Positions 3,423 through 21,203 of a stretch of DNA of 64,000 nucleotides are shown piece after piece. A program made the translations under genes and the position numbers. The stretch lies in the NCBI RefSeq assembly GCF_048403405.1, contig NZ_CP183129.1; one strand, given 5' to 3'. Each line of letters opens with the position of its first letter. Within the stretch, counting starts at the first letter, position 1. Source of the stretch: Escherichia coli. Its GTDB lineage: Bacteria > Pseudomonadota > Gammaproteobacteria > Enterobacterales > Enterobacteriaceae. The notes under the pieces are model-generated. The model was not told the DNA's origin. It was given only the letters and a program-made list of their open reading frames with translations, and did not search any database.

Positions 3423-4541
3423 ATGCATAACCAGGCTCCAATTCAACGTAGAAAATCAACACGTATTTACGTTGGGAATGTGCCGATTGGCGATGGTGCT
3501 CCCATCGCCGTACAGTCCATGACCAATACGCGTACGACAGACGTCGAAGCAACGGTCAATCAAATCAAGGCGTTGGAACGTGTTGGCGCTGATATCGTCC
3601 GTGTCTCAGTACCGACGATGGACGCGGCAGAAGCGTTCAAACTCATCAAACAGCAGGTTAACGTGCCGCTGGTGGCTGACATCCACTTCGACTATCGCAT
3701 TGCGCTGAAAGTAGCGGAATACGGCGTCGATTGTCTGCGTATTAACCCTGGCAATATCGGTAATGAAGAGCGTATTCGCATGGTGGTTGACTGTGCGCGC
3801 GATAAAAACATTCCGATCCGTATTGGCGTTAACGCCGGATCGCTGGAAAAAGATCTGCAAGAAAAGTATGGCGAACCGACGCCGCAGGCGTTGCTGGAAT
3901 CCGCCATGCGTCATGTTGATCATCTCGATCGCTTGAACTTCGATCAGTTCAAAGTCAGCGTGAAAGCGTCAGACGTCTTCCTCGCTGTTGAGTCTTATCG
4001 TTTGCTGGCAAAACAGATCGATCAGCCGCTGCATCTGGGTATCACAGAAGCCGGTGGTGCGCGCAGCGGGGCGGTTAAATCCGCCATTGGTTTAGGTCTG
4101 CTGCTGTCTGAAGGCATTGGCGACACGCTGCGCGTATCGCTGGCGGCCGATCCGGTTGAAGAGATCAAAGTCGGTTTCGATATTTTGAAATCGCTACGTA
4201 TCCGTTCGCGCGGGATCAACTTCATTGCCTGCCCGACCTGTTCGCGTCAGGAGTTTGATGTTATCGGTACGGTTAACGCGTTGGAGCAACGCCTGGAAGA
4301 TATCATCACTCCAATGGACGTTTCGATTATCGGCTGCGTGGTGAATGGCCCAGGTGAGGCGCTGGTTTCTACACTCGGCGTCACCGGCGGTAACAAGAAA
4401 AGCGGCCTCTATGAAGATGGCGTGCGCAAAGACCGTCTGGACAACAACGATATGATCGACCAGTTGGAAGCACGCATTCGTGCGAAAGCCAGTCAGCTGG
4501 ACGAAGCGCGTCGAATTGACGTTCAGCAGGTTGAAAAATAA
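3423..4541 (+). CDS. ispG: 4-hydroxy-3-methylbut-2-en-1-yl diphosphate synthase (IspG/GcpE)
   Basis: 372-aa [26 protein letters not shown]...; C-terminal CPTCSR Fe-S motif. Confidence 0.95.
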
Positions 4542-9621: not shown

Positions 9622-9830
9622 TATCATGTGAATATATTGTTTTATCATTTATATTTAATATGTGAATGGTAAAACAATCTGTTATTAGTGGAATAACTAA
9701 TGTAATTGAGTGAAATCACTAATTTAAATAATTAAGAATATATTTATTCTTTATGACATGCCTTTCTGAATAATCAGGGATACAATATTAAAGCTTATTT
9801 TTGACTGTATCATTGTCACAGGGAAAGTGC
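9622..9830 (+). promoter_or_regulatory. strongly AT-rich intergenic/promoter region upstream of sinH-like gene
   Basis: About 200 bp of roughly 75-80% A+T immediately after core gene yfgJ; typical of horizontally acquired, H-NS-type silenced promoters. Confidence 0.4.
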
Positions 9831-12008
9831 ATGCTGCGATGGAAACGCTGTATTATTCTAACATTTATCTCTGGTGCTGCTTTCGCGGCACCAGAGATAA
9901 ATGTTAAGCAAAACGAATCGTTACCTGATTTAGGTAGCCAGGCAGCACAGCAGGATGAACAAACCAACAAGGGTAAATCGCTGAAAGAGCGCGGAGCCGA
10001 TTACGTCATCAACTCCGCCACGCAAGGGTTTGAAAACTTGACCCCTGAGGCGCTGGAATCTCAGGCCAGAAGCTATCTGCAAAGTCAAATCACCTCAACC
10101 GCACAATCTTATATTGAAGACACACTCTCTCCCTACGGTAAGGTCCGTTCGAACCTCTCCATTGGCCAGGGCGGCGATCTGGATGGCAGTTCCATCGATT
10201 ATTTTGTTCCCTGGTACGATAATCAAACCACTGTTTATTTCAGTCAATTTTCTGCGCAGCGAAAAGAAGATCGTACAATCGGGAATATTGGTCTTGGGGT
10301 AAGACATAATTTTAATGAATGGTTATTGGGTGGAAATATATTTTATGATTATGATTTTACCCGAGGACATCGCCGTTTAGGTTTAGGCGGCGAAGCGTGG
10401 ACTGATTATTTAAAATTCTCTGGCAACTATTATCATCCGCTTTCTGACTGGAAAGACTCTGAAGATTTCGACTTTTATGAAGAACGCCCTGCGCGCGGCT
10501 GGGATATTCGTGCCGAAGCCTGGTTACCTTCTTATCCGCAACTGGGAGGCAAAGTTGTCTTCGAGCAATATTACGGCGATGAAGTCGCCCTTTTTGGTAC
10601 GGATAATTTGGAGAAAGATCCCTACGCGGTAACACTTGGACTGAATTATCAACCGGTGCCATTACTAACCGTTGGGGCGGACTATAAAGCGGGGACCGGA
10701 GATAACAGCGATGTCAGCATTAATGCCACTCTTAATTATCAGTTCGGCGTTCCGCTAAAAGATCAATTGGATAGCGATAAAGTGAAAGCGGCTCACTCGT
10801 TGATGGGCAGTCGTCATGATTTTGTTGAGCGTAATAACTTTATTGTTCTGGAATACAAAGAAAAAGATCCGCTTGATGTCACCCTGTGGTTAAAAGCGGA
10901 TGCCACCAACGAGCACCCTGAGTGCGTCATTAAGGACACTCCCGAAGCGGCCGTCGGGCTGGAAAAATGTAAATGGACCATTAACGCGCTTATCAACCAC
11001 CACTACAAAATTGTCGCTGCGTCATGGCAGGCGAAAAACAATGCTGCCCGCACGCTGGTTATGCCGGTTATCAAAGAGAATACCCTGACAGAGGGTAACA
11101 ATAACCACTGGAACCTGGTGCTGCCCGCCTGGCAGTACAGCTCTGACAAAGCCGAACAAGAAAAACTCAATACCTGGCGAGTACGTCTGGCACTGGAAGA
11201 TGAAAAGGGTAACCGACAGAACTCTGGCGTGGTGGAAATCACCGTTCAGCAGGACCGTAAAATAGAGTTGATTGTTAATAACATCGCGAACGTGCCGGAA
11301 GAGAACAACCACAGCCACGAAGCCAGCGCTCAGGCAGATGGCGTTGATGGTGTGGTGATGGATCTCGATGTAACCGACAGCTTTGGCGATAACACCGACC
11401 GCAATGGCGATGCGCTGCCGGAAGATAACCTCACGCCGCAGCTTTACGACGCGCAGGACAAACGAGTGACGTTAACCAACAAGCCTTGCTCGACCGACAA
11501 CCCCTGCGTTTTTATCGCTAAACAAGATAAAGAAAAGGGCACTGTCACCCTCTCCAGTACCTTACCCGGCACCTATCGCTGGAAAGCAAAAGCTGCGCCC
11601 TACGACGACAGTAACTATGTGGATGTCACTTTCCTCGGGGCAGAAATTGGTGGGCTAAATGCATTTATCTATCGTGTGGGGGCAGCTAAACCCAGCAACC
11701 TGATAGGTAAAGATAAAGAACCGCTGCCGCTCAACAACACTTATCGATTTGTTTTGTGGCGTGACAGCAATAAAGACGGTGTCTTCCAGCAGGTCGAAAA
11801 ACTGACTGACGAAGAGATGGCGCAGTACGACTACAAGTGGGAATTTACCGGCAAGAGCATCAATGGTGAAGTGGGTGCACAGGCGAACACTTCCAATGAG
11901 GACATTGTGATTCCGGCCACTAACCGCGAAGCAGCGCAAACCTATGGCGCACAAGCGGGAGATGGCTTGCAGGGATACGGTTTACGCGTGCTGTATACCA
12001 AAAAATAA
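9831..12008 (+). CDS. sinH: intimin/invasin-like inverse autotransporter adhesin (SinH-like)
   Basis: Signal peptide, N-terminal beta-barrel-like region rich in aromatic/Gly beta-strands, C-terminal passenger; start at ATG 9831 (track ORF starts at TTG 9801). Confidence 0.75.
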   Translation: MLRWKRCIILTFISGAAFAAPEINVKQNESLPDLGSQAAQQDEQTNKGKSLKERGADYVINSATQGFENLTPEALESQARSYLQSQITSTAQSYIEDTLSPYGKVRSNLSIGQGGDLDGSSIDYFVPWYDNQTTVYFSQFSAQRKEDRTIGNIGLGVRHNFNEWLLGGNIFYDYDFTRGHRRLGLGGEAWTDYLKFSGNYYHPLSDWKDSEDFDFYEERPARGWDIRAEAWLPSYPQLGGKVVFEQYYGDEVALFGTDNLEKDPYAVTLGLNYQPVPLLTVGADYKAGTGDNSDVSINATLNYQFGVPLKDQLDSDKVKAAHSLMGSRHDFVERNNFIVLEYKEKDPLDVTLWLKADATNEHPECVIKDTPEAAVGLEKCKWTINALINHHYKIVAASWQAKNNAARTLVMPVIKENTLTEGNNNHWNLVLPAWQYSSDKAEQEKLNTWRVRLALEDEKGNRQNSGVVEITVQQDRKIELIVNNIANVPEENNHSHEASAQADGVDGVVMDLDVTDSFGDNTDRNGDALPEDNLTPQLYDAQDKRVTLTNKPCSTDNPCVFIAKQDKEKGTVTLSSTLPGTYRWKAKAAPYDDSNYVDVTFLGAEIGGLNAFIYRVGAAKPSNLIGKDKEPLPLNNTYRFVLWRDSNKDGVFQQVEKLTDEEMAQYDYKWEFTGKSINGEVGAQANTSNEDIVIPATNREAAQTYGAQAGDGLQGYGLRVLYTKK

Positions 12009-12062: not shown

Positions 12063-13040
12063 ATGAAGCAGGATAAAAGACGCGGTCTGACCCGGATCGC
12101 ATTGGCGCTGGCACTGGCAGGTTATTGTGTGGCACCTGTGGCGCTGGCGGAAGAAAGCGCCTGGGTCGACAGCGGCGAAACCAATATTTTCCAGGGAACC
12201 ATTCCGTGGCTCTATTCGGAAGGGGGAAGCGCTACGACAGATGCCGACCATGTAACGTTGACTTCAGATCTAAAAGGCGCTCGCCCGACAGGTAGTGAAA
12301 CGGACAAGCGTCTTTACTCGGGTGATAAATTAACCGTAAGTTGGGAAATTGGTGATACCGAAGGCGACGTGGATCTTGGGGGATTGGGCGATAACGCAAA
12401 GACTATCGATACTATCCGCTGGATGAGCTACAAGGACGCTCAGGGTAACGATCCAAAAGAGCTGGTAACGAAGGTGACCAGTTACACCCTTACCGATGCC
12501 GACCGTGGTCGTTATATCGGTATTGAAATTACGCCAACCACGCAGACCGGTACGCCAAACGTCGGGAATGCGCTGCATCTTTATGACATTTCCACTGCCA
12601 GCGGCGGCGGAAGCGACAGCGACAACGTTGCGCCAGGGCCGGTGGTTAACCAGAACCTGAAAGTCGCCATCTTTGTTGATGGTACCAGTATCAACCTTAT
12701 CAACGGCAGCACGCCAATCGAACTTGGCAAAACCTACGTGGCCAAACTGTACTCGGATGAGAACAAAAACGGCAAGTTTGATGCGGGTACCGATGCTGAC
12801 GTTACCGCCAATTATGACTTCCGTTGGGTACTTTCTGGCAGCAGCCAGCAGCTCGGCACCTCGGGTGGTATCGTTAACTCAAGCTTCGATAATAACAATC
12901 TGGTCATCCCTGCGACCAACGAAGACGCCAGAACCAACCTTAACGGCCCTGCGCGCGATGGTAAAGAAGCTCTTACCATCCCGACCAACGGCGACGGGGT
13001 ACAGGGGTACAAACTTCACATTATTTACAAACACAAATAA
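12063..13040 (+). CDS. sinI: SinI-like secreted protein
   Basis: 325-aa ORF with signal peptide and strong RBS aaggagag; N-terminus resembles RatA N-terminus, C-terminal ~100 aa resemble SinH C-terminus (VIPATN...DG.QGY motif). Confidence 0.7.
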   Translation: MKQDKRRGLTRIALALALAGYCVAPVALAEESAWVDSGETNIFQGTIPWLYSEGGSATTDADHVTLTSDLKGARPTGSETDKRLYSGDKLTVSWEIGDTEGDVDLGGLGDNAKTIDTIRWMSYKDAQGNDPKELVTKVTSYTLTDADRGRYIGIEITPTTQTGTPNVGNALHLYDISTASGGGSDSDNVAPGPVVNQNLKVAIFVDGTSINLINGSTPIELGKTYVAKLYSDENKNGKFDAGTDADVTANYDFRWVLSGSSQQLGTSGGIVNSSFDNNNLVIPATNEDARTNLNGPARDGKEALTIPTNGDGVQGYKLHIIYKHK

Positions 13041-13051
13041 CGCGTACTCAG

Positions 13052-13116
13052 CAGCATTCCCGCAAGGGAATGCTGTTTCCGCATATTTTGCTTAATCCCG
13101 GATTAAGCAAAATATG
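13052..13116 (+). promoter_or_regulatory. hairpin plus 35-bp perfect palindrome between sinI and ratA
   Basis: cagcattccc-gcaa-gggaatgctg hairpin, then catattttgcttaatc-ccg-gattaagcaaaatatg perfect inverted repeat. Confidence 0.4.
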
Positions 13117-13160
13117 TTGATGCGACAAGCGTCCGTTTAACAACCGGTGGAGTTTCTGTC

Positions 13161-16100
13161 ATGTCCCTGACCCTGAATAAAATCCTTGTGTTATGCGCAT
13201 TGCTGATAAGCGCAATGCTGCCTGGGTGGTCATGGGCAGAATCTGCATGGCAAGACTCTTCAGATACGGTCGGCGAATTTAACGGTACCGTGCCCACCGC
13301 CGACAGTGCCAGCATACCCGTCTACCAGGGCAGTGTCTTTCTGGATCCTGCAAAGACGCATGAGGTAGCGTTTACCGCTAAACCGAGTGAATTCAGCGCG
13401 GATATTAGCGTCTCTAAATTGCTCGTCACCAATCCGCAAGACAGAGAAGGCGATATCATTTCCACCCCACGTTGGGAAAACCAAACGCCACCGACAGTAT
13501 CTTTAGTTTGGGCGGATGCCGCGACGCCGGACACCTTACTGGACCCACAGCCAGTCGCAGATCGCTCGTTTTGCGCTCAGGGACTTGCCGGGCGTTCGCT
13601 GGTCGCCTGGGCGCAGCCTGATCCCCAACAGACCATGCCGCTGTTATATTTACTCACCTCGACGGGCTATCCCTATGAAAGTGTTCTGACGCTCGCCGAT
13701 CAGAAAGTGACGCTGAAGATTGCGCCCGCGCAGGGTGACCTTATTTCCGTCAGCGCCGCGGGCTATGACGAATCCTCCGGTGCGGCGAAAACGACGGTTG
13801 GCGGCAGTATCACGTTAACGGTCACCACCAAAGATTGCGTCGGTAATGTTGTGGGGAATATTCCTTTTGTTATCAAACGCAAAGATGCTGAAAACCGCCA
13901 GGGTGTGGTGAACAATACTGCGCCGGTAAAACTGGGCACGACCGAATTAACCACCACCGCGACGGAATATCGTGGTACTACCGATGCGAATGGTGTTGCC
14001 ACGGTTACGGTCACCCAGGCCAACGGCCCTGGTGTAAAAACGCCGTTGGTCGCGAGCCTTGCGGGTATTGCTCAGGCCAGTGAAACGGCAGTGATCTTTA
14101 CCGTCCTCACCAGCCCGGATGTCCCGCAGGCTACAATGTGGGGTCATATGCCCGATACGCTGAAGGCCCGTGATTACACTTTTAGTCGACCAAAACTGGC
14201 GGCGGAAGTCGATAATGAAGACGGTACGGTTAACGATCACAATGAAACCTGGTCCACCTTTACCTGGAGCGGCGCGGATAAACATTGCGACATTTTGCCC
14301 GGAATGCGTCAGTTCGGTGCGCTGGCGACGGTGGTGCCAACGTCAGTGCAGGATGTGGCTGGTTGGCCGATGCAGGGTAATTTCTACTGGTCATCACTGG
14401 CGGGGATGAGTGGCCAGCACCATGCGGCGGATGTTTCGAACCGCAGCGAAGCGCAAAAACCGGACGATACGACGTTTATTGTGAGCTGTGTCGATAAAGA
14501 AGCGCCCGATGTTGAACCGAAGCTGGTACTGACGCCGGGCAGTTATGATTCGACGATAAAAGCGATGAAAGTAAAGGTGGGGGAAGAGGCTTCTTTACGC
14601 CTGACGATTACCGATAGCAAGAACAACGATCAGCCGCTGGCGTACTACTACTTTTCGCTGCATCTGGATGACGGCGTTAACCGTAAGAATCAAACTGACA
14701 CCGCGTGGCAGGCGAATCCGGTACAAATAGCGGGCGGCAGTAATGTCCATCAGGTTGACGCGCATACCTATGAAGGGATCACTGATGCTAACGGAGAGGC
14801 CTCTCTGACGCTGACCCAGCCAGGCGGTGTGGGGGTGAAAACTCACATCACCGCGAGAATGCGCAGCGATTTTACCGCCTCGGATGAGAAAGACGTTATT
14901 TTTACGGTGATCACCAGCCCTGATTCCGACAAAGCGCGGATGTGGGGACATATGTTGGGCATTATTGAAGCGAATAATATCTTTAAACGCCCACGGCTGG
15001 CGGATGAAACCGACAACGAACTGGGAGCAGTGCGGGAAAATAACGAAGACTGGGCGCTGTTTGATCAGAATAGCAGTATGCAGGCTGAGTGTGGTTTAGG
15101 TCATATTCCGAGCCAAAGCTCATTGCACAGTTTGTTTGCCGCACATCCAGCCAATGTCATCGGCACCGAATATGGCTGGCCAACGTTGCAAAAAGCGTAT
15201 CTTAGTGCGGTGGAAGAGACGTCGCACGCGTCGGTGAACCTGGCCACGGGCAACATCGACACCTATTCCGGCTTTAAGCAAAACTACCTTTCTTGTTCGG
15301 GCAATGAGATGGTCGCCCAGATTGCTGCGACCACCGATCATGATGTTTCCACAAGCAGCAGAGCGCAGGCTAAAGTGGGTGAAACGATTACCATGACGGT
15401 ACGCACCTTTAATGCCTTGAATAATGCGCCCGTGCCGTATACCGCGTTCACCATCACTAAAGATATGGGGAAAAATCGTCAGGGGCAGAGCACGGGTTTC
15501 GATGATCCAACCCGCGGCGCAATCGAGATGAATGGCACGCTCTACGGAACATCGCAACCGTCTTTAGTCTATGCAGGTACTACGGATGCGCAGGGTTTTG
15601 CTACTGTGGAAATTAAGCAACCGCAAGGTGTGGGCTTAGCGACGCCGCTGAATATTGCGCCTGTAAACTCCTATATTCCCAATACTGTTAATTACAATGT
15701 GATTTTCACTACGCTCACCAGTCCGGATGCGGTTGGCGCGCAGATGTGGGGGCATATGGATGAGACGATTACCGTCGATGCATTAACCTTTGCCCGACCC
15801 CGGCTGGCTGCGGAAGTGTCCAGCCCGGACGGCACATTAACGGAAAATAACGAAGTGTGGTCGCGCGTTAGCCAGGCCAACACTTCCAGCACCAGTAAAG
15901 GTGGCTGTGGTGCCAATATGCTCCCACGCCGTTCCCAGCTTAACGCGCTCTATGATGCTAACAGCGGTAACGCCGTTCAAACGGTACACGGTTGGCCAAC
16001 GCAGCGTCAGCCCTACTGGAGCAGTTCGCCCGCGGATCAGGTGCCGCATTACTACACCATAGCCCTCAACGATGGCGCGCGGACCGTTGGCGGTAGCACG

Positions 16101-19100
16101 GCGGTTTATGTCAGTTGCCTGACGACGGCTAACAATCCTGCCAGCAGCATTACGCTGGAAGTGGTGGACCCGGCGCAGTGGAACGCGGCAGCAAATGCGG
16201 CGAAGCTGAAAAAAGGCGAAACGCTACAGGTGAAGGTGACGGTAAAAGATGCTCAGGGCAATCCATTGGGTGATATGCCTTTTACGCTGAAGCGTGGCGA
16301 TGGTTATACCCGATCAAACGAAAAACACATTGCCGGTAGCGGTGATGCGCTGGTTGCGCCGGTTGTGATCAATAGTGGCCTGGCGGATGAAACTTCGCTC
16401 AATGATACCGCCGCAGCATACAGCGCGATGACCGGTAGCGATGGCACTAAAATTCTCACTATTACCCGCCCGGATACCCATGGCACAAAAACGTCGCTGA
16501 CCGCCGCGCTCTATTCAGACACAACGAAAAAAGCGACCCTCGATACCATTTTTACCGTTGTCACCAGCCCAGACAGCAATAAAGCGAAAATGTGGGGGCA
16601 TATGCCGGAAACGGTGACGGCTGCGGATGGAACGGTCTTTAAACGCCCATTATTGTTGAAAGAGTTATCCAGTACGTCGGGTCGAACAGCGATTGCAGAA
16701 GATAATGAGGACTGGGCGCAATTTACCCAAACTCAGGCGACAAGCACATCCTCTAATGGTTGTGGTAGTGAATATGTTCCCTCTCAGGCCGGGCTGGAGT
16801 CATTGTATGAAGCCAACCGCGGCAATGCGATGAAAACGGTTCAGGGCTGGCCCGTCGCCTCAAGTTACCTTACCAGCACGACAGGCAGCAGTAGTCTGGA
16901 ACAGCGTGACTTAAAGGCCGTCAATCTCAGTTCAGGCACCAGTTCGATAATTCCATCGGCCACAAAAGAACTGCTTACCTGCCAGACGACGCCGATCGTC
17001 AAGGCTAGCCAAATCGTTCTTGAGGCTGCGGACCCCACAAAATTTGACAGTACGAATAATGTTGTCAAAGCGAAAAAAGGGGAAGAAGTCGTGGTTCGCG
17101 TGACCACTAAAGATTCGCAGGGTAACCCGGTGGGAAATACCGCGTTTACGCTTAAACGTAACCTTAGCGTCAATCGGGCAAATGCGTCTACAACGGTGAC
17201 AGCAGGCGCGCTCATCGTGACGGATGCCTGGGGTAACACGCAGAGTAATTTTTCCTCAACAACAGCACTGATTTATGGCGTTACCGGCGCAGATGGTACG
17301 ACAACACTTGCACTGAAACAGGACAATACCACGGGTTTAAAAACCGAACTGACCGCCATGCTGGATACAGATAATAACGTAAAATCAATGCTTCCGGTGG
17401 TCTTTACGGTGATAACCAGCCCCGATACCCCTAAAGCAAAATTCTGGGGGCATATGGCCGAAACGATGACCGGTGCTGGCGGGCTTATTTATAAAAGACC
17501 GTTATTGCAAGATGAGCTTTCCGTTACAACCAGTCGAAGCTCTTTTCAGGAAGATGGAGAGAGCTGGTCACTGTTCTCGCCGGACCAGTCGAACAACACA
17601 TCTGTAAATGGTTGCGGTGCAGGATATGTCCCGGTTGAAAGTGAGCTGGAGTCACTGTATGCCGATGAAGGTTACGTGCCAATACATGACGTTACGGGAT
17701 GGCCTGTATCACGCGCCTATATCTCCAGTACGGTTGTTGCCTATTACACTCAAACATTTAATTTTAAAGCGGTTTCGTTAAAAACGGGTGATGGAACGGA
17801 GGTCATGTCAAGCAGTATAGGACTGCTAAGTTGTCGGGCTACCCCAGTGGCGGTGACCAGCCACATTATTGTTGAAGCGAACGATGCGACACAATTTGTC
17901 AAAGTTGACGAAACCCTCAGCGCACTAAAACGGAAAAAAGGTGACGACGCGGTGATTCGCGTGGTGACAAAAGATGCGCAGGGAAATGTCGTACCAAATG
18001 TTCCGTTTATTCTCAAACGTGAAGGATCGACAAATCGCCAGAATGTACAGTTGTCGAACAGAACTATCACTGTAATCAACGCTGCGGGAACGTCGGCAAG
18101 AGTGGATACTCCATCAATCTCCCTTTATGCGGTGACAGGTGCAGACGGGACAGCCACGTTTACGGTAAAGCAGGATGATTCTATAGGCCTGGTAACCAAT
18201 GTGTACGCTCAGGCCTATCAGTCGAGCCTGGAATCCAACAAATTACCCGTGATGTTTACCGTGATAACCAGCCCGGATACCCCCCTGGCAAGTTACTGGG
18301 GGCATATGGCGGAAACGTTCACTACGCGTTCTGGTACTGCCTTCAAACGCCCCTTACTCTCTGCTGAAAGATCGTCGGGCCAGTCGTTTATAGAAGACAA
18401 TGAAGAGTGGGCCGTGTTGAGATCGGCAACAAAGGGGGATATCGATAAAAGCGGGTGCGATGTACATTATCAACCACTGTTAAGCGAACTACAGGCATTG
18501 TACGACGAACACCCAAGTCGTGCGATAAAGACCGATCTGGGTATTCCGGTAAATAGCTACTGGTGGGCTTACGACATGGTGGCATATGCGGGTAACTGGT
18601 ACGATCAATATATTTATCTGTTAAATGGATCAAGTGGAAGAGCGTCTTCAACCACCTCGGCATTAATGCTGTGCCTGGTAAACCCTCATCCAGAGGCGGC
18701 TTCTATTGAAATGACCTCAACGGCGGAGGATGCAACGAAAACGGCCAGCAATGATGGCAGGCCCAGCGCAACAGCGAAGAAGGGAGAGGTTATCCCGATG
18801 ACTGTTACGGTGCGAGATAGCGCAGGCAATCCACTGCCAGGTGCCAGCTTTAACCTTAAACGAGGAACTGCGCTGAACCGCGCTAAAGCTGCGTACGATG
18901 CCTCTGCAGATGATCTTACCATCATACCTGTGGAACCTACTGGGGTAACGTCAATCTTGTATGGGGATGGGACGCAGGCTCTTCTGAAGACAGGGAGCGA
19001 TGGTAAAGCTACGTTTGAGGTCAGCCAGAATAGCAGTTATGGGCTGTCAACGCCGCTCAGCGCAGAACTCATGCGCGATACCTCGAAAAGCGTCACGCTG

Positions 19101-21203
19101 GATGTCATTTTCACGGTGATAACCAGCCCGGATTCGCCAAAAGCGAAATACTGGGGCCATATGCCGGAAACGTTTACCAGTTCGGCAGGCGTGACCTTCA
19201 AGCGCCCATTACTGGCAGCGGAAGCGACTACGGGGAGCTCGGTAAACGGTAATAATGAGACATGGTCATATATATATAGTACTCAAAAAGCGACGGCAGA
19301 TTGTTCGCTGGAATATCAACCGCGCCTCAGCGAATTGCAGGGGTTATATGACGATCACCCAAACGGGGCGTTAACGAAAGATCTGGGGTTGCCGATAGCG
19401 TCAGGAAACTGGTGGATTTATGAATTGCTTAACTCCAATGGTAGCTCCTGGTATTACCAGGTCTTTAACCTAAGTACGGGACGAGCATCATCCGCACTCT
19501 CTCCGGTTGCTCTAATGCTCTGCCTGGCACAGCCTCACTCTAAGCCGTCAAGCGTTACCCTGACTTCAATAGCATTTGATGAGACGAGAACCGCAAGTAA
19601 CGGCGGTACACCTTCGGCATCGGCGAAAAAGGGCGAGACAATCCCGTTAGTCGTGACAGTAAAAGACCAAAATGGCAACCTGCTGAGTGGCGAGAGCGTG
19701 ACGCTTCAGCGGGCACAGGCGAAAAGTCGTTCAGGAATTAGGCCCTCATCGTCGGCAGATGATCTTATTGTAGATGTCATCACACCGACAGCGGTCAGCA
19801 TTCCCTTTACTCAGGATACGGCAAAATGGCTTGGCTTTACCGGCAGTGATGGCACAGTGACGTTCAATGTTACGCAAAACGCCACCACCGGCCTGGCAAC
19901 GCCGTTTACGGTCTCGCTTGCACAAGATCCGCAGATCACGTCAAACCTGGACCTGATATTTACCGTGGTCACCAGCCCTGACTCCCTGGATGCCAACTAC
20001 TGGGGCCATATGCCAGAAACGGTGACAGCGGCAAATGGAACCGTCTTTGAACGACCGAAATTGTGGAAGGAACTGCCATCGACCTCCGGGGTAAATAAAA
20101 CCAATAACAATAATGAGGACTGGCCCTATTTTTCGTCAACCACTAAAGCAAATTCCAGCCTCAGCCCTTGTGAGGAAGCCCGGCAACCGTTGCTCAGCGA
20201 TATGAAGTCACTGTATCAACGTTATCCCAATAACACCCTTACGACGGAAACTGGCTGGTCAGTTTATTATTACTGGTGGGCGCAGGATAAGACTACAGAT
20301 GGTAAAAATCAGTCGCTCAATATGAAAGATGGCACAACGACATTGAATGGTAATGCCGCTTATCAGGCGTGTCTGGTGTCTGCGCGCGCGACGGTTTCCA
20401 GCGTCACACTGACCTCAACAGCGTTTGATGCTGACAGCCAGGCGGCGAAAGTGAAAAAAGGCGAAGCCATGCCCGTTACCGTGACGGTGAAAGACAGCGC
20501 CGGGAATACGGTACCGAATGTGGAATTTACTTTGAAACGTGGCGATGCATCGCCGCGTAACGCTGGGGCGACGTTGTATGGTGATGTGGTGGCGATGGAC
20601 GATCTCATCGTTCAGCCGTTATCTGGTTCGGCTGTTACGCTGAGTGAAAGCGGTAATACCATTAGTGGCATGACAGGCGCGGATGGGACGGCAAGTTTTA
20701 CGCTCCGCCAGGATAATACCCCTGGTTATAAAACGCCACTGACGGTTACTCTGGCTAATTACGCTTCCGCGACAGACACGCTGGACGCTATTTTTACGGT
20801 ACCAACCAGCCCGAATGTTTCCTCGGCGCACTTTTGGGGACATATGGCAGACACTGTAGTGGTGAATGGTAAATCGCTACATCGACCGTTGTTAACGACA
20901 GAATTGCCGTCCGGGGCTAATCCCGTATCCTCACCGATTATTAACTACGAAAACTGGGCTTCTGCACATATCATTGATGCCAGTAAATGGGATATTGCAA
21001 GGCAGTGTGGCAGCATAGAAAATGCACCGACATACAATGAATTAGAGTTGTTGCACACTGTTTTTAATTCACTGGGATGGCCGTCTTCACCAAGTTTTCC
21101 TTATTTGTCCTCTCAACAGTGTGGGATGGACGAAGGCACTGGAGCACAGGATTGTAGTATCACGCTAATGAATAAACCGGGTCTGGTGACCTGCTTCCAG
21201 TAA
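13161..21203 (+). CDS. ratA: giant repeat-containing surface protein (RatA-like)
   Basis: 2680-aa uninterrupted ORF with signal peptide and about 9 tandem ~283-aa repeats each carrying FTV(I/V)TSPD...WGHM. Confidence 0.8.
14050..20900 (+). repeat. tandem ~850-bp coding repeats inside ratA-like gene
   Basis: TSPD...WGHM motif recurs at approx. 14.10, 14.91, 15.72, 16.56, 17.41, 18.26, 19.12, 19.97, 20.80 kb. Confidence 0.75.

Follow-up and report, generated by a model that had tools for sequence, protein, structure and literature searches.

The intergenic region between sinI and the giant adhesin gene ratA of Escherichia coli very probably carries a functional RNA element on the sense strand. 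Two adjacent hairpins occupy 72 nt there, positions 13050-13121 on the plus strand of the window (the whole stretch of 64,000 nt of contig NZ_CP183129.1 that was analysed). On balance we favour reading them as a two-part, cis-acting RNA element within the sinH-sinI-ratA transcript, in which a leaky terminator is followed by a helix that forms only in read-through RNA, is read as a helix, and sets the output of RatA.

SinH is a fitness factor and a vaccine candidate of extraintestinal E. coli, and Salmonella colonises the gut with a contribution from the sinH-sinI-ratA (CS54-type) island. The gene order in this part of the window is der-yfgJ-sinH-sinI-ratA-xseA, in E. coli DNA that, over 401 nt around both repeats, matches strain 118UI and further extraintestinal isolates at 100% identity. 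The sinH gene (9831-12008, plus strand) encodes an intimin-like inverse autotransporter (NCBIfam equivalog NF033423, 1489 bits, and the RefSeq annotation of the identical locus) and is presumed to be the first gene of an operon. It is followed on the same strand by sinI (12063-13040, stop codon at 13038-13040), which encodes a SinI family autotransporter-associated protein (NCBIfam NF040711, 336.6 bits; RefSeq), and by the ratA-like adhesin gene (13161-21203), an intact reading frame for a RatA-like protein (PRK15316) of 2680 aa with BIg21/InvE_AD repeats. The Shine-Dalgarno sequence of this last gene, GGUGGAG (13146-13152, plus strand), stands 8 nt upstream of the ATG at 13161.

The gaps between the three genes are 54 and 120 nt. 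No consensus promoter was found between 12500 and 13160, and the spacer has no conserved promoter elements. A published comparison sets the sinH/sinI cluster beside the zirTSU operon, where an inverse autotransporter exports its partners (PMC6714894), and residues 69-210 of SinI give a weak match to the ZirU family. From the common strand, the short gaps, the lack of a conserved promoter between the genes, the likeness to zirTSU and the ZirU-family match, we infer that sinH, sinI and ratA are co-transcribed as a putative operon. A literature search on transcription of the sinI-ratA locus (transcripts, end mapping, an rnc mutant) found nothing. The genes around the island are der, yfgJ, xseA and guaBA, with no regulator gene among them.

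The SinI and SinH models of NCBIfam hit each other reciprocally: residues 208-325 of SinI (12063-13037) match the C-terminus of SinH, and residues 629-732 of SinH (9801-12005) match the SinI model, so that the C-terminal domain of SinI is common to the SinH passenger. A tandem 8-nt repeat (GGGGTACA twice, 12996-13011) at the 3' end of sinI codes for the conserved C-terminal DGVQGY motif, which was itself the search pattern used in retrieving sinI loci. The RatA-like frame (13161-21203), intact in the window, differs at 80 of 8043 nt from the copy in strain 118UI (L001, 14262-22304), which has an internal stop at codon 905 and is a pseudogene according to RefSeq. A ChIP study places a binding site of the sigma-54 holoenzyme, TGGTACGGATCTTGCCAT, inside sinH (STM2517) of Salmonella LT2 (PMC3844500). 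This site is unrelated to the sinI-ratA spacer; it may bear on transcription within the island.

The first hairpin begins 10 nt past the sinI stop codon. The initial annotation had described a hairpin with a 10-bp stem at this place, and a repeat finder recovers it, with arms at 13052-13061 and 13066-13075 that are 100% complementary. The perfect, G+C-rich stem encloses a GCAA tetraloop (13062-13065), giving a stem-loop of the terminator type on the plus strand, and in RNA folding A-U and G.U pairs lengthen it to 12 bp (13050-13077). Its folding energy is -20.6 kcal/mol (z -6.8), and none of 200 shuffled sequences is equally stable. Selection on the pairing can be followed among 21 orthologues, in which 7 of the 10 pairs show compensatory changes and 98% of cells are paired. 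One orthologous locus (L016) keeps the stem without any U run, and another (L027) is without hairpin 1.

A short U-tract, UUU (13076-13078, plus strand), follows the stem, and two of its residues, U13077 and U13078, are shared with the base of the second hairpin. Most orthologues have 4-5 U at this position, against 3 in the window. A consensus terminator scan that requires at least 5 T in 8 makes no call at 13050-13080. Because the U-tract is too short for that scan, hairpin 1 is probably leaky if it terminates transcription at all, and we regard it as a probable leaky intrinsic terminator, judging from its sequence and fold. The initial annotation had proposed termination or attenuation of transcription into ratA; the stem, the tetraloop, the short U run and the compensatory changes support this indirectly, while the U-tract falls below the consensus of the scan. 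With 3 U only, and no terminator called at 13050-13080, hairpin 1 could instead be merely a stability hairpin.

Directly downstream, the initial annotation had reported a perfect inverted repeat with 16-bp arms around three nucleotides. The palindrome is real and 35 bp long (13082-13116): its two arms of 17 nt (13082-13098 and 13100-13116) are 100% complementary and stand 1 nt apart, so the 16-3-16 and 17+1+17 descriptions are of the same object. None of 100 shuffled versions of the window contains a match to the 35-mer. Folding, alignments, pair counts and a covariance model place it within a conserved element of 45 nt (hairpin 2; 13077-13121, plus strand). From bottom to top, the helix consists of UUC paired with GA(A), a mismatch of C13080 with U13118, a wobble pair G13081.U13117, and the perfect stem of 17 bp, which leaves an effective loop of 3 nt in the window. 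The flanking sequences UUCCGC and GUUGAA, when each orthologue is folded, prove to be the bottom of this helix and no separate motif. Hairpin 2 has a folding energy of -21.1 kcal/mol (z -7.8; 0 of 200 shuffles equally stable), and the 140-nt region around both hairpins has a folding z of -5.1. Two or three bottom pairs of hairpin 2 draw on the U residues at the end of the hairpin 1 tail, and for that reason the complete helix would be present only in read-through RNA.

Orthologous loci of other species were retrieved through alignment of SinI. Thirty-one distinct sequences, from Escherichia, Salmonella, Citrobacter, Pseudocitrobacter and Superficieibacter, have the two-hairpin module after sinI; its carriers include S. 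enterica, S. bongori, several Citrobacter species, E. albertii, E. whittamii and other Escherichia clades, with SinI proteins 41-69% identical to that of the window. The layout throughout is a hairpin, a U run, CCGC, N4, TTTGCTTA, N8-9, TAAGCAAA, N4 and GTTGA. Within E. coli itself the island exists in several deeply divergent alleles (typified by the window, by IAI39/ST131 and by 23CRST031), whose spacers are 75-80% identical and keep both hairpins. The module is absent in Lelliottia and Buttiauxella, which have a different downstream gene, and in Leminorella. Citrobacter sp. R56 (L015, about 4365-4470) keeps the terminator hairpin, with TTTTT, and a ratA-like gene and has lost hairpin 2, which is therefore not indispensable.

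When pairs are counted over 21 distinct sequences aligned with MAFFT, 94.7% of pair cells are occupied by standard pairs, against 38-47% when the partners are slid by 1-3 columns. Fifteen of 26 pairs have changed on both sides, and none of 500 shuffles attains these two values; in the helix of hairpin 2 alone, 8 of 21 pairs have done so. These changes are unevenly distributed. Four outer and three inner pairs of hairpin 2 covary freely, and the central eight are almost invariant. In the window the two halves of this core are UUUGCUUA (13087-13094, with a G-C step at 13090-13091) and UAAGCAAA (13104-13111), both on the plus strand. Among the 31 sequences, the six A/U pairs of the core are kept in all 31, the G-C pair in 30, and the C-G pair in 29. 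The exception at the G-C pair is E. albertii, in which both sides have changed to give A-U. Substitution by U.G, common in the outer stem, does not occur in the core.

The base of the helix is kept almost as strictly. The CxU mismatch is present in 28 of 31 sequences, and the other three, E. albertii and P. faecalis among them, have A-U there. The G.U wobble is present in 29 (A-U in the other two), and the next C pairs with G. The core follows the pattern W3-S2-W3 (UUU-GC-UUA), and the G.U/CxU element lies 10-11 bp below, about one helical turn; in the other direction, only 6-7 bp separate the G-C step from the loop. The helix comprises 21 stacked positions with a single 1x1 mismatch, and this length is constant in all 31 sequences. 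The loop is free in both sequence and size, at 2-5 nt in general and up to 20 nt in E. albertii.

Variation on a smaller scale can be seen in four genomes with the window-type allele that carry 1-3 differences, a sample too small to weigh: 13116 G>A disrupts the C-G pair at the outer end of the perfect stem, 13081 G>A turns the G.U wobble into A-U, and the remaining changes fall outside the stems.

Some loci depart from the usual form of the module or its surroundings. In E. albertii (L019, 4418-4479), the loop of hairpin 2 has 20 nt as compared with 3 nt, and the core pair has gone from G-C to A-U through changes in both arms. E. coli 23CRST031 (L004, 3840-4010) and Escherichia sp. E1V33 (L010) carry an insertion of about 185 nt consisting of two inverted REP units (REP/BIME), located between an intact hairpin 1 without a U run and a degenerate duplicate of hairpin 1 of about 20 nt. 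A sister allele (L022) is without the insertion, which suggests that REP insertion took place with target duplication exactly at the terminator. The single-stranded tail from hairpin 2 to the ribosome binding site (13122-13145, plus strand) is variable according to folding of the orthologues. In the Citrobacter and Salmonella loci L012, L013, L018, L027 and L028 it is A-rich and apparently unstructured, with repeated ACAG(A) motifs directly upstream of an AGGUGGA Shine-Dalgarno sequence; the window allele differs in having a small local hairpin at 13119-13133. The distance from hairpin 2 to the ratA ATG ranges from 31 to 45 nt across orthologues, and a purine-rich Shine-Dalgarno sequence is kept, 25-35 nt past the hairpin.

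A perfect palindrome may be a structure in RNA or a site on double-stranded DNA, and the initial annotation had offered both. Over the 31 distinct sequences, the cells of hairpin 2 that depart from Watson-Crick pairing, read on the plus strand, include 93 G.U and 3 A.C; since these cells are not phylogenetically independent, the comparison may also be made by distinct position-and-type events, which gives 12 to 3 (p = 0.035). A DNA palindrome would decay symmetrically, so the 93:3 asymmetry points to RNA. The plus strand also folds better, with a mean minimum free energy of -20.7 kcal/mol compared with -15.6 for the minus strand and an advantage in 28 of 31 sequences (Wilcoxon p = 3.5e-6). The covariance model (R1) scores hairpin 2 of the window at 62 bits on the plus strand and 42 on the minus strand, and over the true copies the ranges are 47-67 and 26-47 bits, a difference of roughly 20-30 bits. 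The G.U excess and the better folding of the plus strand argue for selection on the sense RNA and not on a double-stranded DNA operator. The suggestion of an RNA structure is thus upheld by the 93 to 3 count, by the fold in 28 of 31 sequences, and by the E. albertii helix, kept through changes on both sides.

That the palindrome should be a DNA operator, where a dimeric transcription factor represses or road-blocks transcription into ratA, is by comparison very unlikely. Like the sites of dimeric factors, the window has a perfect dyad, and the 8-bp half-sites TTTGCTTA and TAAGCAAA are conserved between genera. The spacing between these half-sites is not fixed, however, but takes values of 8, 9, 11 and 26 nt, and departures from the dyad are G.T far more often than A.C (the same 93 vs 3), although both would be equally damaging to a DNA palindrome. 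Variable positions in the outer and inner stem, which such a protein would not contact, covary, which is not required of a protein site, and the conserved flanks make sense as RNA pairs, with G.U included. No usable promoter lies within reach of the element, because the Shine-Dalgarno sequence comes 25-35 nt after it, and no linked regulator gene occurs among the neighbours. Taken with the changes in E. albertii, the variable spacing, the strand-asymmetric mismatches and the better folding of the plus strand speak against the dimeric-regulator site that had been suggested.

Other signals were considered for the same nucleotides and rejected. The GTTGA(A) sequence resembles a sigma-70 -35 element, but stands 31-45 nt from the ATG with the Shine-Dalgarno sequence between and has no conserved -10; instead of serving as a -35 box, GTTGAA pairs with UUCCGC at the base of the helix. 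TTGCT resembles the -12 element of a sigma-54 promoter, but the GG at -24 is absent on either strand (by eye). Resemblances to boxA, RAT, CsrA, IHF, RcsAB, LexA, CRP and attC were also considered, and none fits in sequence, register or loop requirement. A mini-ORF from ATG 13114 to TAA 13140 is not conserved in other alleles. Anti-Shine-Dalgarno pairing of UUCCGC with GUGGAG is possible in the window, but is not conserved and is missing from the minimum-energy folds.

The spacer occurs in 1705 of 5426 complete E. coli genomes (31%), always between sinI and a ratA-like gene. BLAST appears to find a second place in each genome, but this is a self-match of the palindrome to its opposite strand; a search for the palindrome elsewhere, which had been proposed as a check, gives one locus only in each of the 1705 genomes. 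Neither the window nor 280 kb of related loci hold an extra copy, and the Salmonella ratA-ratB spacer holds no similar element. There are no phage matches, and the only two "plasmid" matches are chromosomes of 4.9 Mb. Viral contigs containing the 16-nt core score at most 29 bits against the covariance model (true copies 47-67) and were discarded as chance-level matches. A metagenome scan returned 54 matches, 44 of them sinI-ratA loci; the other 10 are unrelated AT-rich sequences without flanks or stem, and are read as chance matches. A search of the window against Rfam 15 gives only chance matches to miRNA models (17 bits, where gathering scores are 49-95), and the Salmonella, Citrobacter-like and IAI39 loci give nothing but sroE, which lies elsewhere. 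(This sroE, RF00371, 117 bits, is at 2298-2389 of L028, between ispG and hisS, upstream of the Salmonella island.) Neither Rfam nor the literature that could be searched contains a description of the two-hairpin element. A compact, perfect palindrome in an island present in only 31% of E. coli genomes might suggest a functionless relic of a small mobile or repeated element (a MITE, REP-like or phage-derived), but this is essentially excluded by the single copy per genome (the second BLAST place being a self-match), by the lack of phage or true plasmid matches and the scores of no more than 29 bits for viral contigs, and by the syntenic position and conservation of the element across genera.

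In the mechanism that we propose, hairpin 1 and its short U run would cause part of the transcripts to end after sinI. Partial termination, for which a short U run is the design one would expect, would leave SinH, the outer-membrane platform, and its partner SinI in excess over RatA with its 2680 aa. Only in transcripts that read through would hairpin 2 form, as the U residues of the terminator tail, together with CCGC, pair with GUUGAA and close the helix of 21 positions. The closed helix would present the UUUGCUUA/UAAGCAAA core, the CxU mismatch with the G.U wobble next to it, a helical turn beneath the G-C step, and a free loop. A fixed helix length, fixed internal pairs and a free loop together suggest a factor that reads the helix itself. 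Such a double-strand-specific factor, for which we think RNase III, the obvious candidate in enterobacteria, the most likely, would act on hairpin 2; cleavage would free a stable sinH-sinI message capped by hairpin 1 and set the fate of the ratA mRNA, which would then bear a 5' monophosphate.

We propose only tentatively that hairpin 2 serves as a processing or stability site of the RNase III type, and would put this at rather less than an even chance. Double-stranded RNA of about 22 bp fits into RNase III; its sites are over-represented in the intergenic stretches of transcripts, and G-C/C-G is favoured at the two pairs that lie between the staggered cuts (PMC6212723). The loop is no determinant and a single set of proximal and distal boxes is enough (PMC1540722). 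Hairpin 2 conforms in size, with 21 positions against the 22 bp or so given in these sources (PMC6212723, PMC1540722), and in its indifference to the loop, which varies from 2 to 20 nt. A search of the literature for data on RNase III cleavage at sinI-ratA found none, and the published map was made in K-12. Against this enzyme are the invariant 8-bp sequence, which is no known requirement of it, and the distance of 6-7 bp from the G-C step to the loop, short for a symmetric site. The core is thus conserved beyond the needs of RNase III, which may indicate some other partner that is specific for the sequence.

The two remaining accounts both keep the element as RNA and differ as to what is recognized. 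Hairpin 2 could be an RNA operator, its core and CxU/G.U base bound by a sequence-specific protein or by a small RNA that invades one arm, with control falling on the translation of ratA or else on the processivity or stability of the transcript entering this 8-kb gene. It would account well for an invariant 8-bp core that never takes the U.G pairs frequent in the outer stem, for a CxU mismatch and a G.U wobble retained (28 and 29 of 31) beyond any need of RNase III or of an exonuclease barrier, and for the constrained spacing of 31-45 nt downstream; the core, mismatch and wobble are hallmarks of a specific contact. We nevertheless think it rather unlikely, though a serious rival, as the loop, the usual contact of hairpin-binding regulators, is free in sequence and size; no candidate regulator gene is found at the locus (der, yfgJ, xseA, guaBA); the 280 kb of related loci hold no second copy of the motif and Rfam no matching family; and the metagenome matches outside the sinI-ratA context are unrelated. 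A related suggestion, which we offer as possible but doubtful, is that hairpin 2 is the first member of a cis-regulatory RNA motif of enterobacteria that has not been described before, is read sequence-specifically, and gates RatA only in transcripts that get past the sinI terminator. One candidate for the factor would then be a dedicated RNA-binding protein, another RNase III in the role of a regulator that binds.

Both hairpins might, on the other hand, be structural only, their sequence unread, and form a barrier to 3'-5' exonucleases that stabilises the sinH-sinI message; a variant of the same account has the folded, untranslated spacer stopping Rho from loading before ratA. Two very stable hairpins (-20.6 and -21.1 kcal/mol) side by side in an untranslated gap of 120 nt would serve such a purpose, their stability is kept at about -20 kcal/mol while the outer pairs covary, and in one E. 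coli allele (L004/L010) a genuine REP/BIME pair has been inserted at the same spot. Structure alone leaves unexplained the invariant 8-bp core, as well as a mismatch and a wobble that persist across genera while the loop, outer stem and tail are scrambled, and we consider it improbable. The two-part element, with a leaky terminator and a helix read as such in read-through RNA, is the reading that we retain.

In kind, the element belongs with known intercistronic modules that combine a terminator with a processing hairpin. In the rpsO-pnp region of E. coli, the pnp leader has a hairpin that RNase III cleaves, and this comes after terminator t1. The sinI-ratA spacer has the same succession of upstream gene, read-through intrinsic terminator, long hairpin, ribosome binding site and downstream gene, and here too a helix is proposed to decide the fate of the downstream message. 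The differences are that pnp has a promoter of its own between terminator and hairpin, and that PNPase closes a feedback loop; at sinI-ratA there is no evident promoter or autoregulator, the two regions are unrelated in sequence, and cleavage is putative.

Retroregulation of lambda int by sib offers a second likeness, in that the helix is completed only when a terminator is read through, as we propose for hairpin 2. Like sib and the early RNase III processing signals of T7 of the R1.1 type (for R1.1, PMC1540722), hairpin 2 is an intercistronic helix of about two turns with an internal mismatch or loop, and a protective 3' hairpin would be left on the upstream product. Those signals are phage-borne and their cleavage is proven, whereas hairpin 2 is chromosomal and conserved between genera at a single locus, with a core that is far more constrained in sequence than known RNase III sites. 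REP/BIME elements, as in malE-malF, are likewise stable intercistronic hairpins, able to stop 3' exonucleases and to make the genes of one operon unequal in expression, but they exist in hundreds of dispersed copies with a family consensus, and the sinI-ratA element is present once and has no similarity to REP. The EAR element of the Bacillus eps operon and put of phage HK022 are conserved structured RNAs that also stand between early genes and a long distal part, in operons for surface structures. These have several helices and conserved loops and act on RNA polymerase; hairpin 2 consists of one plain helix whose loop is free, placed after and not before the only visible terminator.

A covariation-supported structured element that is missing from Rfam, and that has the unusual combination of an invariant sequence inside the helix with a free loop, makes hairpin 2 well suited to testing whether bacteria recognise double-stranded RNA by its sequence. 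For the biology of the island, a conserved RNA switch point ahead of the 8-kb ratA gene provides a concrete, mutable handle on the relative expression of sinH, sinI and ratA, and may explain how over-production of a surface protein of 2680 residues is avoided.
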